Origin: a virus
DNA length: 64,000 bases
IMG/VR virus record: IMGVR_UViG_3300002461_001229
Direction: 5' to 3' (one strand)
The notes under the pieces were generated by a model. That model was not told the DNA's origin and did no database searches. It worked only from the letters and a program-made list of their open reading frames with translations. This document shows, in pieces, positions 2,889 to 53,677 of the stretch; the first letter of the stretch is position 1; every line of letters starts with the position of its first letter. The position numbers and the translations under genes were made by a program.

Positions 2889-2954
2889 AAAAAGCTCCGC
2901 AACCTTGGTAAGGTTGCGGAGCTTTCATCCGGTTTGGGCCGTACGGCCGCTTCA
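2889..2954 (-). promoter_or_regulatory. Conserved leader plus intrinsic terminator, copy 1 of 3 (ahead of the lysis operon)
   Basis: TGAAGCGGCCGTACGGCCCAAACCGGATGAAAGCTCCGC-AACCTT-ACC-AAGGTT-GCGGAGC-TTTTT; the 39-nt core recurs at 26657-26723 and 46400-46468. Confidence 0.85.
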
Positions 2955-2964
2955 AATTGGCTAT

Positions 2965-2993
2965 AAAATAAACCTTTAGCCGTTCCTTGTCAA
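2965..2993 (-). promoter_or_regulatory. Sigma70-type promoter of copy 1
   Basis: TTGACA (2993-2988, containing the giant gene's TGA stop), 17-nt spacer, TATTTT (2970-2965). Confidence 0.7.
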
Positions 2994-5900: not shown

Positions 5901-8900
5901 AACTTCTTGCGACGGCCGGTAACTTTTCGCGAGGTCCGGATGGCGTCCTCGGACCCGGCAAGCTCTTGCTTGAGCGCGTCGAGCTGTCGCTGCAGCGATT
6001 CCATTTGACGACGGAAAGCCTCATGCTCAGCGAGGTCAACTTCTGCCTTCCCGGCCTTTTCCTCGATCCGGCGAATGATGTCGGCCGGCAGATCGTTCCC
6101 GACGCCGTGGCGGTCCTGGTACGTCTTTTGGGCGACGGCGATCAGTCCGTCCGTTGTCTTGAGGATCACGCCTGCCGCCCGGATGAAGCGGCCGGCACGG
6201 ACCATCTTCATTGCCAGATGGACGCCGAGGTCGATTGACACGCGGCGAAGCTTGGCAGCCTCGTCCGGTTTCGTCGCCTCGATGCGGGTTGCTTCTTCAC
6301 GGAGCGACTGCTGGATGGAGAACGCGGCGATCGCGTGATGAACGTCGGGGCTTTCCGTGTTCTTGAGGATCTTCAGCACTTCCTCGGTGCTGTTCTCGGT
6401 GAGCATCCGCTTTGCCGCGGCCTGAGCTGCCCGGTCGCTGAACACCGTGTAGATCACATCGTCGGCAGCGATGCCGGCCGCACGCTCGGTGCCGGGCAGG
6501 CTGGCAAGTTCGGTTTTGGAGCGGACGCCGGGGAACTGCTTGGTTTCCGGGATCTCGGACGCGTCGCCGGCTACTTTGCTTTGGGTTTTGGGCTCGAATC
6601 CTTCGAGGTCGTAGGGCTTTGCTCCTTGCTCAGCATCAGGTCGTGGCGCTTCTTGAACTCCGCCAGACGCTCCGCTCGGCTTGCCTTTGGCATTTCCTTG
6701 CGTATCTCGGCCATCAGGTCGGCCGTCTGTGCCAGCATCGACCTCTTTTCGGGCTGCGGCGAGAACTCTTTGGGTTGCTTCTTGGACATGTTCAATCTCC
6801 TCAAATCGACGGAGTGCCGCCTCAACGGCACGCTCAGCGTCCTCATCGGACTTGCCCTCTTTCTTCGTGTCAGCATAGACCTTGTCGGCGAACGACTCAA
6901 GAAACTCGAACAAGTATTCCTGCCCCTCGTCCTTGGTCAGGCCGAGCTCTTCCCAGCTTCCCTCGGCGACCCACGCAGCGACCTCCTCGCGAACGAGAGC
7001 TTTGCTCAGAGCCTCAGCGTTCGCCTTGCTCATGTTGGCGGTTTGGCGAAGCCGCTCGGGGCTGTACTCGGGTTGCTGCGAGAAGAAGCTGTCCCACGCT
7101 TTCCGGACCTGCGGCATCTTGTCGAGCTCGGCCGGGCGTGCATGGCGTTTGGTCAGGTGCTTCTCGACCGAACCGAGATAGACCGCCTGGTGGAAGATCT
7201 CCTGCGGCAGCTTGGCATCGTACACGTAGAACACCGCGGTCTGCTGTCCGGCTTTGCGTGCGTCAGCGATGTCGTTGGCAAGGCCGCTCAGCATAGCGTC
7301 CGCGGCCGGATGCCCCGTTTCGGCCGCGTTGACGGCGGCGGCCATTAACGCCTGTTCGACCTTGATCAGTTTCGCGGCATCGGTGAACAGCCCGAGAAAC
7401 GCCGGATACGTGCTTTCGTCGCCGACCTTTCGCTTCCCTGCCTCGATATCGACCTGCTCGAAAGCCCGGCGAAGCAGTTCCATTGCCGGCAGATTGAGCT
7501 TCACGCGGTCACCGCTGCGAGTGGCTTCCACCATCGGCACGACGTCCTCGATATCGAGCGTCTTGAGGATCTTGATCGCCTGTTTGCGATTTTCTTCCTC
7601 GATCGAATACATCGGCTGCTCATCGGTCGCGAGAGCTTCGCGGAGCGGATCGGTAATGCCCATCGTCCAGACCGGATGCGTCTTACGCCGGAATACCTCT
7701 TTGGCTTCCTTGATGTACTGTTCCGCCGCCTCCCGCGTCAGGAAGGTGCCGCGGTAAGCCGGCAGGCCGGTCGCCGAATCGGTCGCCGTGACCTTGAAGC
7801 GATGCAGGTGCGGAGCGGGGTTGACCAGCTCCAGCTCCAGCTCCTCGACGCGGAAGTCGGTCAGCTTGAGATAGGGATCGTAAGAGATCTCGCCGTTTTC
7901 GACCTTTGCCGCATACCGCCCATAGATCTTCTTCATGTGGGCCGGAATGACCTTGTCGTACAGGTTGCGGAGCGAATCGCCGCCGATCTTTAGCCCGTCG
8001 CCCTCGATGGTGCCGCTTGTCTGTTCGAGTATCTGATTGGCGAGAGCCTTCGGAAACACCTCGGTCAGCTTCCGGTCAACGAACTTGTCCTCCGACGAAT
8101 TGATGATGGTGCCGTGCGGCCCCGCGGTGATCCTGATCGGATCGCGGTCGCCCTTTGCCGTTACGCGGATAAGCGACTGCCCGGAAAGGTTCTTGCTGAA
8201 CTCTATCCGGTCGACCGTTTTCTCGATCGGGTAGCGGGCAAGCTGCTGTTCGCCGGTCGTCCAGGCGACGGCATCAAGCCCTTGGTCGATCGCGTACTGC
8301 ATCGCGTACTTGAGCCCCATCTGCTTGTGGTACTTCTGCAGGACCGCGGGCATCTTCGCCATGTTGTCCTCGTCCGGCCCCTGAACCTCGTGGACCATCA
8401 GCGCGCGACGGCCATCGTCGAGCGTGACCTTGTCCATCCGGATGCGGACGACCGGGTTCTTGACGTCGGCATACTCGGGATGCCCGTCGATCCAGCCGCC
8501 CTCTGCGAACGGAGCGGTGAGGAACATTTCCTTGTAGTCCTCACGCGAAGCCGGGAACGGTTCGGCATAGCCGCGGAACTTGGCCGAGTCCTGATCGCCG
8601 TCCCAGCCGAGCGCGAGCGGTTCGACGACGATCTTGCTGGCCCGGATCTTCTTGAGCAGCTCGTCCTTCGTGATGGATCTTGCCCCGAGGTCCGCTTGCA
8701 GCTGGACGAACACATCCAGCAGGGTGTGATCAAGCTCCTCCGCGCGGATGCCGGGCAGCTTATTGATCACGTTCATTACCTGATCGACCGAGAACTTCTC
8801 TTGCTTGAGCCCTTCGACCGCCCGCTCGAGCCCGGAGTAGAACCGGACCTCTTTTCGTGCCGGTTCGTAGATCGAGAACATCGGCTGCCCTTCGTCCATG

Positions 8901-26163: not shown

Positions 26164-26640
26164 TTACGCAGCTCCGGCCGCGCCGACCGACGCCCCTCCG
26201 GTCGGTATCGCCGACGCCAGCATCGCTCCGCCCATCAAACCTTGAGTGAGCATTCCGCCCCAATCGAACGGCTGGACGGTCGTTTGCGTGCCGCCCGTCT
26301 GGACGAACTTGTCCTGCGTCATGTTGGCGAGGTTCATTGCCCCGCTGGTCTTGGCCATGTGCTCCCGCGATCGAGCATCGGAGAGCGCTGCCCCCTTCTG
26401 CATCCGGATATTGAAGAGCTGGCCGGCTTTGACCTTGTTGCGGGCAGGCTCGGGCAGGTCTTGCTCGAACACCTGATTGTCGATGTCGTTCTCGGCCTGG
26501 CCGTAGGCAAATGCCAGCGGAGAGGTGAAGTCAGCACCTTCGCGGACAAGCCCGCGGGCCCACTTGGTGTCCTGAGTGTCCTGGTACGGCACGTAACCGT
26601 GCGTGTTTTTAGTTGTCGTGGTGGTCTTTTTTTTCCCCAT
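26164..26640 (-). CDS. Small internal virion/pilot-type ejection protein (158 aa)
   Basis: Start re-assigned to MGKKKTTTTTK (GGAG SD just after the copy-2 terminator); Gly/Ala-rich hydrophobic C-terminus. Confidence 0.65.
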   Translation of the reverse strand: MGKKKTTTTTKNTHGYVPYQDTQDTKWARGLVREGADFTSPLAFAYGQAENDIDNQVFEQDLPEPARNKVKAGQLFNIRMQKGAALSDARSREHMAKTSGAMNLANMTQDKFVQTGGTQTTVQPFDWGGMLTQGLMGGAMLASAIPTGGASVGAAGAA

Positions 26641-26656
26641 CTGTGACTCCAATGAG

Positions 26657-26723
26657 AAAAAGCTCCGCAGCTCAAATTTGAGCTGCGGAGCTTTCATCCG
26701 GTTCGGGCCGTACGGCCGCTTCA
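26657..26723 (-). promoter_or_regulatory. Conserved leader plus intrinsic terminator, copy 2 of 3 (ahead of the ejection operon)
   Basis: TGAAGCGGCCGTACGGCCCGAACCGGATGAAAGCTCCGC-AGCTCA-AATT-TGAGCT-GCGGAGC-TTTTT. Confidence 0.85.
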
Positions 26724-26734
26724 GGTTGTCAAGA

Positions 26735-26763
26735 AAAATAGCACTTCACCGCGTGAAACGCAA
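26735..26763 (-). promoter_or_regulatory. Sigma70-type promoter of copy 2
   Basis: TTGCGT (26763-26758), 17-nt spacer, TATTTT (26740-26735), at the same offset from the leader as the other copies. Confidence 0.6.
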
Positions 26764-39954: not shown

Positions 39955-39987
39955 CAAAAATGCAGGAGCACCATCGGGTACTCCTGC
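39955..39987 (-). terminator. Intrinsic terminator after the major capsid gene
   Basis: GCAGGAGTACC-CGAT-GGTGCTCCTGC followed by ATTTTTG. Confidence 0.8.
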
Positions 39988-40000
39988 GTCCAGTGGAGGA

Positions 40001-46065: not shown

Positions 46066-46368
46066 CTAGAAGTGGAGCGTCTGGTGCTCGTCGCCCTCCT
46101 CGGTGATCACATCGATCGCGTCGATACTGCCCCCGGACGTGAAGCCGGGCACGAACTCGTCGGCAGCTTCGAGCGACGGGATCACGCGTTGTGCGAAGTT
46201 GTTCTCCGCGGTGTGGCGGGTCGCCTGGTCGGCCTCGACCGCAGCAATGGCGTTGGCCTCGCTGGTCAGGTCGCCATCCACGAGCATTCCTTGGCGCTCG
46301 CCGAACTTGATGCCGCCACGGACTCCTGAGCGGATAGGCTGTGTTGCAACGTGATAGGTTTCAGACAT
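46066..46368 (-). CDS. Hypothetical protein (100 aa)
   Basis: CAGGAG SD; first ORF after regulatory copy 3. Confidence 0.7.
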   Translation of the reverse strand: MSETYHVATQPIRSGVRGGIKFGERQGMLVDGDLTSEANAIAAVEADQATRHTAENNFAQRVIPSLEAADEFVPGFTSGGSIDAIDVITEEGDEHQTLHF

Positions 46369-46399: not shown

Positions 46400-46468
46400 A
46401 AAAAAGCTCCGCAACGCTGTATTAGCGTCGCGGAGCTCTCATCCGGATCGGGCCGTACGGCCGCTTCA
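46400..46468 (-). promoter_or_regulatory. Conserved leader plus intrinsic terminator, copy 3 of 3 (ahead of the head/tail operon)
   Basis: TGAAGCGGCCGTACGGCCCGATCCGGATGAGAGCTCCGC-GACGCT-AATAC-AGCGTT-GCGGAGC-TTTTTT. Confidence 0.85.
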
Positions 46469-46479
46469 AATTTGCGAAA

Positions 46480-46508
46480 AATTTACGTCATTTTTGCGAG
46501 AACGTCAA
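46480..46508 (-). promoter_or_regulatory. Sigma70-type promoter of copy 3
   Basis: TTGACG (46508-46503), 17-nt spacer, TAAATT (46485-46480). Confidence 0.7.
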
Positions 46509-46511
46509 TAC

Positions 46512-46715
46512 TCACTCGTGTCTTTTCCTCTGCTGGCGAAGCTTTTTCAGCTTCAAGCCGTTGAACGAGAACCGGGCCGAACAGCTCTGACATGTGAAAT
46601 ATGCACCGAAAACCATGATTCCGGGCGGCATCTCGATCTCGATCAGGCAGCATTGAACATCGTCGTACCAGGCGGAAACTTTTTTGCAGTTCGGGCAGGT
46701 TATGGGACGGATCAT
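46512..46715 (-). CDS. Small Zn-ribbon protein (67 aa)
   Basis: MIRPITCPNCKK...FTCQSCSARF, with a basic tail KLKKLRQQRKRHE. Confidence 0.6.
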   Translation of the reverse strand: MIRPITCPNCKKVSAWYDDVQCCLIEIEMPPGIMVFGAYFTCQSCSARFSFNGLKLKKLRQQRKRHE

Positions 46716-46774
46716 TAAGCTCGCTCGTAGCAAGCAGGTGGCTGAGGTTCAATTTACCAGAGTCCGCGAAAATG

Positions 46775-49042
46775 TCAACGGGGTTGGAACCATGGCCCCG
46801 AATCGCCGTCGAAATCGACATCCTCGTCGAGCGGGTTGGCCGGCCCCGGATCGTCGTCGTCGAAGTGGATCTGCCGCGTCAGGTCCTCGTCGGCATCGTC
46901 GCCGTGGCGATGCCGCAGCTGGCGAAGAGCCCGATCGCGGATCTCGAGTTTTTCGAGCTGTTGGATTCGGGTGAACCGCGTTCGCTCGGTGGTCGCATCG
47001 ATCACGCCCTGCACCGGTGACTGCTCGACCAGCAGCTCGTACTCCTCGCGAATGGACAGCGGTTCGTTGTCGAGTCCGCCGTTGACGTACATCATTTGCA
47101 GCTCGTTGCCGAAGTCGTCCATCGCCTTGACCGGCTCGTCGATCTTCTCGCCGGATTCGAGCAGCTTCGGCTCTGCCATTTCCCACTCGATCATCTGCCG
47201 GCGAAACAGGTCGTCGTCGTGCAGATCTTCGGCAGCCATGTTCTTCGGGTACGGCTTCGGCGGATAGACGAGCAGTCCGTTGACCAGCCGCGGCTTGACG
47301 GTGGTGTCGTCCGGCACGACGACGAACCAGCGTGTGAAGCCTTTGACGCCCGGCCGGAACGGATGGTCCTCGGTGGTGTCGACCGCCATCGCCCGGTTGA
47401 TCTGCTCTACGCCGCCGAACTTCCCGGGATTGACACCGACGCACGAAAGCCCGTACACGGTCGCGTAAGCCCGTCTAATGTCCTCCCGCTCGTGCGAGAC
47501 GACGCCGCCGATGACGTTGTGCTCTTGAAGCAGCGGTTCGGAGTATTGCGGTATTATCTCGGCCAGAGCAGATTGTTCCAGCTCGATCCGTTCGAGCGAG
47601 CTCTGAGCGTGAGCGGCCGAGTTGATGCGAAGCAGCTCCTCCCGGCGAAGGTCCGACCAGGTCTTGTTGCCGGATCCGCCGATCCGCCGCACTGCGTACT
47701 CGTCGAGGCAGCCGAGAACACGCTCGGCGACGTCCTCGAACTGAGCGTTCGCCTTGAAGCTCATCGGGTTGAAGATGAACTCGAAGCCGGGCAGCGGTGA
47801 ATTCCGCGGTGAGACGGTCCGCCAGAGAGCGACGTTCGCGTGGAATCGCGTCTTGGTTCTCGCCCAATCGTTTCCCCATTCCTTACGCCACGATTTCGGC
47901 ATCGCGGTCGTTCCGAAGACCGATGCGAATTCGCTCGTCGAAATGCAATGAATGTCGTCACGATAGGCGTGGAGCATACGTCGCTCGTCCTCGCCCTCGA
48001 CCTCGTGCTGGCACTCCCGCATGAACGCCGGCAGGCCGATGCGGTCGAGCTCGTCCTGGCACGCTGTTATGTCCATATACCTCCATGTTGCCGTTCCGGC
48101 AGTGATCACATCGCGGACTATCTCGATCCCGAGGACCGTGGTCTTCCGCTTTTCTGTGAGCAGCCCGACAACTGCCGGCACCGGCCGCGACGGTCGGCGA
48201 TTGACGAGCACTCGCGCTTGGTTGGTGTAGATCCGGTACATGATCGAATGGCGATTGATGAGGTTCTGAGCCCAAACGGTCAGAGTTCCGATCGCACCCA
48301 TCGGCAGGATCTCGCTGGTGAAGGTTTCGAAGTTCTTCTCGGTGATCGTGGCGGACAGCTTACGGTCGTCGATGTCGTCCGGGATGATGATGCTCGGCCG
48401 GACGTTGTCGATGTTGCCGCCTGCCAGTCCCGATTGCAGCGAACCGAAGTGGAACACATGGCCGCTTGCGGTGTAGAGCAGAGTGGCCTTCCATCCGCGG
48501 CTGCTGTTCGTCTGAGCGTCCCGCTTGACCATCGTCAGGGTTGGGGCATGTTTTTGGAGTGCGGACGATTGCAGGAGCTGCATTATCGAAAGAGCGTGCT
48601 TCTCGGTCTTGTTGTCCGTGCCGGAGAAGTACAGGCAGTAACCGCTTCGCCCGTAGAACAGCTCAATGACCGCGTCCATGATCGCCAGACGCCGCGCAAT
48701 CGTCGATTTCATGTGACCGCGTGACCACATCGGGAAATCCGCGTAGTAGCCGCGGAAAGGCCGCTCGTTGCGGCAAATGCGGTGCCGGGCAGCCCAATGC
48801 CAGCGGATCGTTCGCTCGTGGTGCGGAGCGAGGACATCAACGAATTCGTCGCCGAAGAGCAAAGAATAGGCGGCTCTCCAATTCTTCCGGATCGCCGCCT
48901 TCAATTCGTTCGATAGCTGAAAGTTGTCTTGCTTATTCGCCTGGACCGCCGTCCCTAAATTCTTCCCCTCCAAGGCCGCTACGAAGCTCCGGGCCAAGAA
49001 GCCTTTTGAATTCCCCAACAACTGCTGCGCGTATCTCTGCAT
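46775..49042 (-). CDS. terL: Terminase large subunit
   Basis: Walker A-like SRGHMKST, Walker B IIIPDD, C-terminal nuclease acidic residues; lies between TerS and portal. Start uncertain. Confidence 0.85.
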   Translation of the reverse strand: MQRYAQQLLGNSKGFLARSFVAALEGKNLGTAVQANKQDNFQLSNELKAAIRKNWRAAYSLLFGDEFVDVLAPHHERTIRWHWAARHRICRNERPFRGYYADFPMWSRGHMKSTIARRLAIMDAVIELFYGRSGYCLYFSGTDNKTEKHALSIMQLLQSSALQKHAPTLTMVKRDAQTNSSRGWKATLLYTASGHVFHFGSLQSGLAGGNIDNVRPSIIIPDDIDDRKLSATITEKNFETFTSEILPMGAIGTLTVWAQNLINRHSIMYRIYTNQARVLVNRRPSRPVPAVVGLLTEKRKTTVLGIEIVRDVITAGTATWRYMDITACQDELDRIGLPAFMRECQHEVEGEDERRMLHAYRDDIHCISTSEFASVFGTTAMPKSWRKEWGNDWARTKTRFHANVALWRTVSPRNSPLPGFEFIFNPMSFKANAQFEDVAERVLGCLDEYAVRRIGGSGNKTWSDLRREELLRINSAAHAQSSLERIELEQSALAEIIPQYSEPLLQEHNVIGGVVSHEREDIRRAYATVYGLSCVGVNPGKFGGVEQINRAMAVDTTEDHPFRPGVKGFTRWFVVVPDDTTVKPRLVNGLLVYPPKPYPKNMAAEDLHDDDLFRRQMIEWEMAEPKLLESGEKIDEPVKAMDDFGNELQMMYVNGGLDNEPLSIREEYELLVEQSPVQGVIDATTERTRFTRIQQLEKLEIRDRALRQLRHRHGDDADEDLTRQIHFDDDDPGPANPLDEDVDFDGDSGPWFQPR

Positions 49043-53600: not shown

Positions 53601-53677
53601 TGGTTGCGAGAGGCAGAGTTGAACCGCCTGATTTCCGGCTTATGAGGCCGACGAGCCACCCTTGCTCCATTCTCGCG
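53601..53677 (-). tRNA. tRNA-Met(CAU), initiator (fMet)-like with an atypical anticodon stem; CCA encoded
   Basis: CGCGAGA-A-TG-GAGC-AAGGGTG-GCTC-G-TCGGC-CTCATAA-GCCGG-AAATCA-GGCGG-TTCAACT-CTGCC-TCTCGCA-ACCA; C1:A72 mismatch, A11:U24, A73. Confidence 0.9.

Follow-up and report, generated by a model that had tools for sequence, protein, structure and literature searches.

Late genes of phages are classically activated by DNA-loaded Q proteins, by activators, among which four-cysteine proteins of the Ogr type exist, or by new sigma factors. Antitermination of the ANTAR or BglG type, which is site-specific and works by RNA binding, is familiar chiefly from metabolic operons of bacteria. The ANTAR proteins EutV, NasR and AmiR cause antitermination at dual-hairpin RNA targets (PMC3369931), and Com of phage Mu is a zinc finger protein that binds an RNA hairpin of the mom mRNA (PMC6483171). 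Here we analyse a leader element present in three copies in the window (the whole 64,000-nt stretch of viral DNA under study), in which a promoter is followed by two small hairpins, P1 and P2, and by an intrinsic terminator that overlaps P2. We think it probable that this gate is an ANTAR-like dual-hairpin attenuator, opened by a zinc-ribbon protein and controlling late genes. It is apparently an undescribed way of late-gene activation in phage, and literature searches, with most subscription journals outside their coverage, returned no description of the element.

Genomic context of the element

Exactly three copies of the gate were found in an 855-kb assembly, all on one contig (C3; 72.5 kb, 59% GC). 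C3 carries a probable integrase gene at one end, terminase genes, an endolysin gene and head genes, nearly all on the minus strand, and looks, from this content, like a whole temperate phage. Its probable capsid gene was found in 0 of 40 relatives of the bin, and its portal and zinc-ribbon proteins have their named homologues in Pyrinomonadaceae assemblies, with an identical zinc-ribbon protein on a 759-kb contig; the phage is probably a mis-binned Acidobacteriota prophage. A tRNA with a CAT anticodon (53601-53677, minus strand; ARAGORN, Rfam) lies in the early region. Two of the copies precede the lysis block and a second gene block:

2889..2993, minus strand: copy 1 of the promoter-P1-P2/terminator gate, before the lysis block (endolysin 1771-2538), terminator hairpin at 2894-2922
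26657..26763, minus strand: copy 2 of the gate, before the gene block 26164-26641, terminator hairpin at 26662-26691

An open reading frame of 6951 aa (2990-23845, minus strand) ends at the copy 1 promoter. Copy 3 lies between these genes:

46775..49042, minus strand: terminase large subunit (PHROG 38, E 4e-8), upstream of the zinc-ribbon gene
46066..46368, minus strand: first gated gene, encoding a conserved, unannotated protein of 100 aa

The 100-aa gene is followed by a gene for 136 aa, the portal gene and probable scaffold and capsid genes, in synteny with relatives. The portal is assigned from a weak SU10_portal hit on a homologue (P0014), and the putative scaffold and capsid from their position. 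A terminator-like hairpin after the probable capsid gene (about 39960-39995, minus strand; -23.5 kcal/mol, U5), which has no P1-P2 leader, may step down the expression of downstream genes.

Anatomy of the copy 3 leader

The copy 3 element comprises, in order of transcription:

46480..46508, minus strand: sigma70-type promoter (-35 box 46508-46503, 17-nt spacer, -10 box 46485-46480)
46468..46473, minus strand: AU-rich 5' segment (AAUUU-like), directly 5' of P1
46451..46462, minus strand: P1, a GC-rich hairpin of 4-5 bp with a mostly GU-initial loop
46431..46445, minus strand: P2, the candidate antiterminator hairpin (5' strand 46445-46442, 7-nt T-loop-type loop 46441-46435, 3' strand 46434-46431)
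46400..46436, minus strand: intrinsic terminator with a 13-bp stem, 5-nt loop and U6 tract (5' arm 46436-46424, loop 46423-46419, 3' arm 46418-46406, six U 46405-46400)

A short linker separates P1 from P2, and a ribosome-binding site follows the U-tract. Two promoter-like sites were detected around copy 3 (0.2 expected), and transcription would start near 46473. The leader is ~75 nt long, P1 and P2 together span about 32 nt of it, and in the window copies the promoter lies 37-38 nt 5' of the conserved P2 loop. The 3' strand of P2 (46434-46431) is also part of the first half of the terminator 5' arm, and the two pairings are predicted to be mutually exclusive.

The terminator stem contains a single G-U pair (G46429/U46413), which exists on the minus strand only; the plus strand has C/A at this position and the fold is broken there. 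Accordingly, the leader folds better as minus-strand RNA (-37.9 vs -31.9 kcal/mol; z -6.05 vs -3.87). The first-pass annotation had argued from the G-U pair that the hairpin is selected as minus-strand RNA. A lone G-U pair is by itself weak evidence of strand, and the strand is settled by the terminator stems of the homologues, with 16 G-U pairs in sense vs 2 in antisense, together with the direction of the promoter, the U-tract and the genes; selection as minus-strand RNA is borne out on these grounds.

Three alternative roles for parts of the leader were considered and rejected. P1 as a palindromic DNA operator fails in most homologues, which are not palindromic; a CsrA site lacks the ANGGA motif in most homologues; and a pseudoknot between the AU-rich segment and the P2 loop is broken in copy 2.

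Comparison of the three copies

As the first reading had noted, the 7-bp proximal part of the terminator stem does not vary among the copies, and the distal 6 bp differ yet pair in all three, where chance pairing of a 6-bp stem is expected at about 0.0002-0.003 per copy. Compensatory changes had been claimed for the distal stem, and of this claim the retention of pairing stands, but position-by-position compensation does not: pairwise identity of the distal arms is 2/6, 3/6 and 2/6, no more alike than random sequence, and the arms may have been replaced as a whole rather than by stepwise change. The distal arms show selection for pairing, but any terminator would show paired distal stems, so this is no proof of a switch.

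The copies could also be plain promoter-terminator cassettes, duplicated or gene-converted within the genome, with no switch at all. Copies 1 and 2 share their ribosome-binding site and start region, an identical 13-nt stretch that includes the start codon (2862-2874 and 26638-26650, minus strand) despite their differing distal stems and promoters, which suggests cassette duplication, and P1 plus P2 alone fold no better than shuffled sequences (z 0.1). However, identity among the three copies is confined to the leader (37-38 of 40 nt), with the promoters (11-15 of 29 positions) and the distal stems diverged and the promoter spacers unrelated and without a common motif; a strong terminator between a promoter and essential genes would also need a bypass. 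With the covariation described below, which largely refutes it, we regard a switchless cassette as extremely improbable.

Homologous elements and covariation

Contigs of relatives were obtained via portal homologues (42-48% identity; 43-48% among related phages where measured) and, for one phage (L170), via the zinc-ribbon protein. The element was present between terminase and portal in 8 of the 11 portal-derived phages, mostly directly 5' of the same ~100-aa gene, and with L170 nine other diverged phages carry it in the terminase-portal region, making ten gated phages with that of the window. All 12 available elements have an intrinsic terminator between promoter and first gene, and in each case a start codon with a ribosome-binding site follows at a distance of 16-38 nt. 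The equivalent promoter was found 5' of all 11 elements checked and of the L170 element. The AU-rich segment occurs in most homologues and adjoins P1 even where an extra hairpin between promoter and P1-P2 shifts the switch about 30 nt downstream (L161:9100-9170; L164:6090-6130). In several relatives, long genes at the terminase position contain inteins, some with LAGLIDADG domains (L161:2285-7783, L163:4145-7465, L166:1901-5413, L170:3916-7755).

A covariance model built from 3 phages recovered the element in 6 of 7 held-out phages, and a rule-based scan, its rules set after the elements had been seen, detected 12/12 elements with 5 background hits in about 1 Mb. The element of L163, which is real, was missed by both covariance models, so the absence of a gate from L152, L158 and L162 was judged by direct reading and the rule-based scan. 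Scanning viral, metagenome and genome collections with exact DNA patterns gave nothing, or chance matches in coding DNA; blastn against GenBank phages gave nothing useful, and neither tblastn against GenBank phages nor protein-seeded scans of viral contigs found relatives. No Rfam 15 family matched at the gathering threshold, generic hairpin matches lying far below it.

Pairing in the homologues was evaluated with shuffle controls, which ignore relatedness, among phages that are deeply diverged. In the terminator, 6 of 10 pairs changed on both sides, and 19 cells had changed on both sides compared with 7 in shuffles (0/500 as high), and the covariation measures also exceeded those of all slid registers. 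For P2, an unfitted alignment gave 6 such cells compared with 2.8 in shuffles (6/500), and when the 5' strands were permuted among phages in a register-aware comparison, which allows a one-base register shift of the three phages with shifted P2 register and 8-nt loop, 37 pairs formed natively vs 25.7 (p about 0.0004). P1 was found in all 12 elements. It was misaligned by MAFFT, so that RNAalifold predicted the terminator only; when alignment was anchored on the loop, 4 of 5 P1 pairs flip between C-G, G-C and U-A, and 3 of 5 changed on both sides in the model-fitted alignment, which is biased towards structure. Thus terminator, P2 and P1 all covary, the first two by shuffle or permutation tests, as the selection for structure claimed for the hairpin would predict, and with a covarying P2 antiterminator and the gate in nine relatives, the view that the copies are one common switch and not three independent terminators gains support.

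The proximal stem had been thought to be fixed by its sequence. This is contradicted by the comparison across ten phages, in which 2 to 7 of its 7 positions are identical to the window. In the window, the proximal arm is identical because it has double duty, pairing with both the terminator 3' arm and the 5' strand of P2, a hairpin missed in the first reading; across phages it changes in concert with its partners. The 37-38 of 40 nt shared by the window leaders, and the distant phage L170, which has the same proximal arm as the window, leave room for some remaining sequence preference and phage-specific reading. The related idea that the 5' leader is under sequence selection holds for the conserved P2 loop and agrees with the near identity of the copies, but not for P1, which covaries.

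Competition between P2 and the terminator

In all 12 elements, the 3' strand of P2 belongs to the adjacent terminator as well. The P2 pair probability is 0.41-1.0 in RNA cut 8 nt after the loop and 0.0 in the full-length leader, and P2 alone is worth -1.4 to -7.3 kcal/mol compared with -18 to -30 kcal/mol for the terminator. Since P2 is much weaker than the terminator, something must stabilise it, and its weakness together with its loss in the full leader makes termination the default.

Sequence conservation is concentrated in the P2 loop, which is near-invariant (UGARAG, with A3, A5 and G6 invariant). Position 1 is U in 11/12 elements, and position 2 is G or U, position 4 a purine and position 5 A in 12/12. 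This composition fits the sequence definition of a T-loop (a 7-nt loop with U(C) 1 paired to A 5, G or U at 2 and a purine at 4; PMC12641257), with three phages showing an 8-nt register. A GNRA reading is also possible, since a tetraloop closed by U-G or C-G fits 11/12 elements.

Alternatively, the terminated ~75-nt RNA could itself be the functional product, a small RNA or a protein decoy like StxS from lambdoid PR', with late genes expressed by leakage or through another antiterminator. The promoters look constitutive and there is a precedent (PMC7547250). However, P2 and its loop, the most conserved feature, are destroyed in the terminated RNA, and the fixed position of the element before a ribosome-binding site and start codon likewise speaks for control of the gene that follows; an RNA product is very unlikely. 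That the RNA switch itself is real seems to us very probable.

A zinc-ribbon gene linked to the element

Immediately upstream of copy 3 is a small gene with a promoter-like site of its own:

46512..46715, minus strand: 67-aa zinc-ribbon protein (CxxC-31-CxxC and a basic C-terminal helix), candidate trans-acting antiterminator
46751..46778, minus strand: promoter-like site for the zinc-ribbon gene (10/12 match, extended -10), overlapping the end of the terminase gene

The gene ends 3 nt before the copy 3 -35 box. Its product was modelled by AlphaFold as a confident beta-ribbon (pLDDT 92), the four cysteines are conserved, and the basic helix has a median of 6 K/R in the 14 residues after a conserved Gly. 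A search for relatives gave 43 hits at E<=0.001, of which about 40 belong to the family. The protein has no Pfam, PHROG or PDB assignment, and fold searches gave no significant match, with weak zinc-ribbon matches only, which is not evidence of a new fold.

Similar promoter-like sites were found 5' of the gene in L154, L166 and L167, and the zinc-ribbon gene seems to have its own promoter. Several homologues were missed by gene callers, and some homologues appear to use a weak start codon (ATT, ATC, TTG, GTG) behind a purine-rich site (L154:8404-8409, L166:5839-5844, L161:8071-8076, L164 near 3975), which suggests deliberately low expression. In the window, a 7-bp hairpin just 5' of the start codon (46716-46735, minus strand; z -1.5, not significant) may hide the ribosome-binding site and likewise hints at low expression. 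In L157, the promoter upstream of the gene has its -10 box between the arms of an 8-bp inverted repeat (6090-6140), a possible repressor operator.

An unannotated ~70-aa zinc-ribbon homologue was found upstream of the gate in 10/10 gated phages. In nine of these it lies 42-2527 nt upstream of the loop, the linkage being kept across 1.4-2.5 kb of other genes. At the three ungated loci (L152, L158 and L162, from two portal-tree lineages), neither gene nor gate was found in fragments of 13-23 kb; either could lie elsewhere in those genomes, a single deletion could take out both because they are adjacent, and the independent losses number only two. L158 (8950-9068) and L162 (2750-2848) keep a promoter at the site, followed by a different leader hairpin without a U-tract, possibly an alternative control element. 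The linkage was also examined in the opposite direction. L170 was chosen by its zinc-ribbon protein alone (26% identity), and the gate was predicted in writing before the contig was fetched. Besides terminase and head genes, the contig contained the zinc-ribbon gene and a gate made up of promoter, P1, P2 with the same loop, and terminator (E 1e-5). L170 is a member of the same phage group, so this tests the linkage within the group only.

A real switch could nevertheless be flipped by something other than the zinc-ribbon protein, such as a host protein, an antisense RNA or a small aromatic ligand in the T-loop pocket, with the zinc-ribbon protein being either a DNA-binding late activator like Ogr of phage P2 or a linked passenger. 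T-loops do form ligand or base-insertion pockets in riboswitches (PMC12641257), and the co-absence of gene and gate is explicable by simple physical linkage. The gated genes, however, are structural and lytic, not metabolic; the three near-consensus promoters have no common upstream or spacer motif for a DNA-bound activator; no Ogr/Delta family was among the Pfam matches listed; and the gene keeps its linkage to the gate in spite of inserted genes. We consider such a reading unlikely and favour the zinc-ribbon protein as the antiterminator.

Proposed mechanism

From the architecture, mutually exclusive pairings, covariation, strand and gene linkage seen in the sequence analysis, we propose the following sequence of events. 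A host-type promoter would start a ~75-nt leader before the late genes, and P1 and then the weak P2 would fold as the RNA emerges. Once made, the terminator 3' arm would capture the shared strand and transcription would stop, leaving the gate OFF by default. When present, the zinc-ribbon protein would bind the P1-P2 unit, most likely by reading the T-loop-type P2 loop, so that bound P2 would keep the shared strand and block the terminator, and polymerase would enter the head, ejection and lysis operons. One zinc-ribbon protein could open all three gates. Binding of the RNA, activation rather than repression and late timing are inferred steps of this scheme.

In its most specific form, the proposal is that an undescribed zinc-ribbon family reads a dual-hairpin RNA with a T-loop cap and directly keeps the terminator from folding at several late promoters, replacing Q-type control in a probable Acidobacteriota phage lineage, and we lean slightly towards it. 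If true, the phage would have a late regulon that follows ANTAR/BglG logic, its RNA without an Rfam family and its protein without an entry in Pfam or PHROGs, and it would be unusual for a T-loop to cap an antiterminator that is read by a protein. The switch, at 67 aa plus ~75 nt, would be a compact protein-RNA device for turning genes ON, possibly specific to phages, and with such tiny parts and ten natural protein-RNA pairs, binding, specificity and orthogonality are directly testable, with possible use as synthetic ON switches.

Comparison with known systems

The gate resembles the lambdoid PR'-tR' region controlled by Q, in that a strong promoter and a short leader with a terminator precede late genes. 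However, Q reads DNA between the -35 and -10 boxes. Here the spacers lack a common motif, it is the RNA that is conserved and covaries, and the leader can adopt another fold in place of the terminator. No Q-family match was found among the few genes scanned near the terminase. In BglG/SacY/LicT-RAT systems a protein-stabilised antiterminator excludes an overlapping terminator, as is proposed here, but RAT is a single ~30-nt stem-loop, and the present system has no CAT or PRD protein.

N/nut boxB and put are also promoter-proximal phage RNA hairpins that allow read-through, and P1-P2 could be a loading site of this kind, like lambda nut/boxB or HK022 put, that makes polymerase terminator-resistant with or without the zinc-ribbon protein, the terminator overlap being secondary. 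The two hairpins are promoter-proximal, the loop is purine-rich and may be GNRA-like, the candidate protein has an arginine/lysine-rich helix, and an ordinary leaderless terminator lies after the capsid gene, at about 39960. On the other side, local switching follows directly from the invariable presence of the P2 3' strand in the adjacent terminator, processive antitermination would make three gates largely redundant, and no boxA-like conserved segment was seen. N/nut and put act processively on distant terminators, in early genes, and put is a larger, factor-independent RNA (~70 nt, two stems) that needs no phage protein (PMC9378689), whereas P1-P2 is less than half that length and overlaps its own terminator. 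A loading site is therefore an unlikely explanation, and local antitermination remains the preferred one.

Like Mu Com, the candidate is a small four-cysteine phage zinc protein encoded just upstream of its target, where a hairpin competes with an inhibitory structure. Com differs in that it activates translation of one gene, while here the competing structure is a terminator and there are three sites, and the cysteine spacing is longer here (31 residues). The window protein does not match Pfam Zn_ribbon_Com (PF10122), which 1 of 40 family members touches (E 0.011), and the match in the Atlas structures is weak (TM 0.50).

The differences from ANTAR systems lie in the parts. ANTAR loops are twin hexaloops with A1/G4, whereas here the first loop is variable (3-6 nt) and the second is a 7-8 nt UGARAG loop; the candidate protein is a zinc ribbon and not a three-helix ANTAR domain; and the targets are phage late genes. 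No PF03861 match was found in the assembly, with control genomes equally silent and the bin probably not the true host genome. The logic, in contrast, is alike, with two small hairpins of which the second overlaps the terminator 5' arm, several copies that form one regulon, and a default state of OFF.
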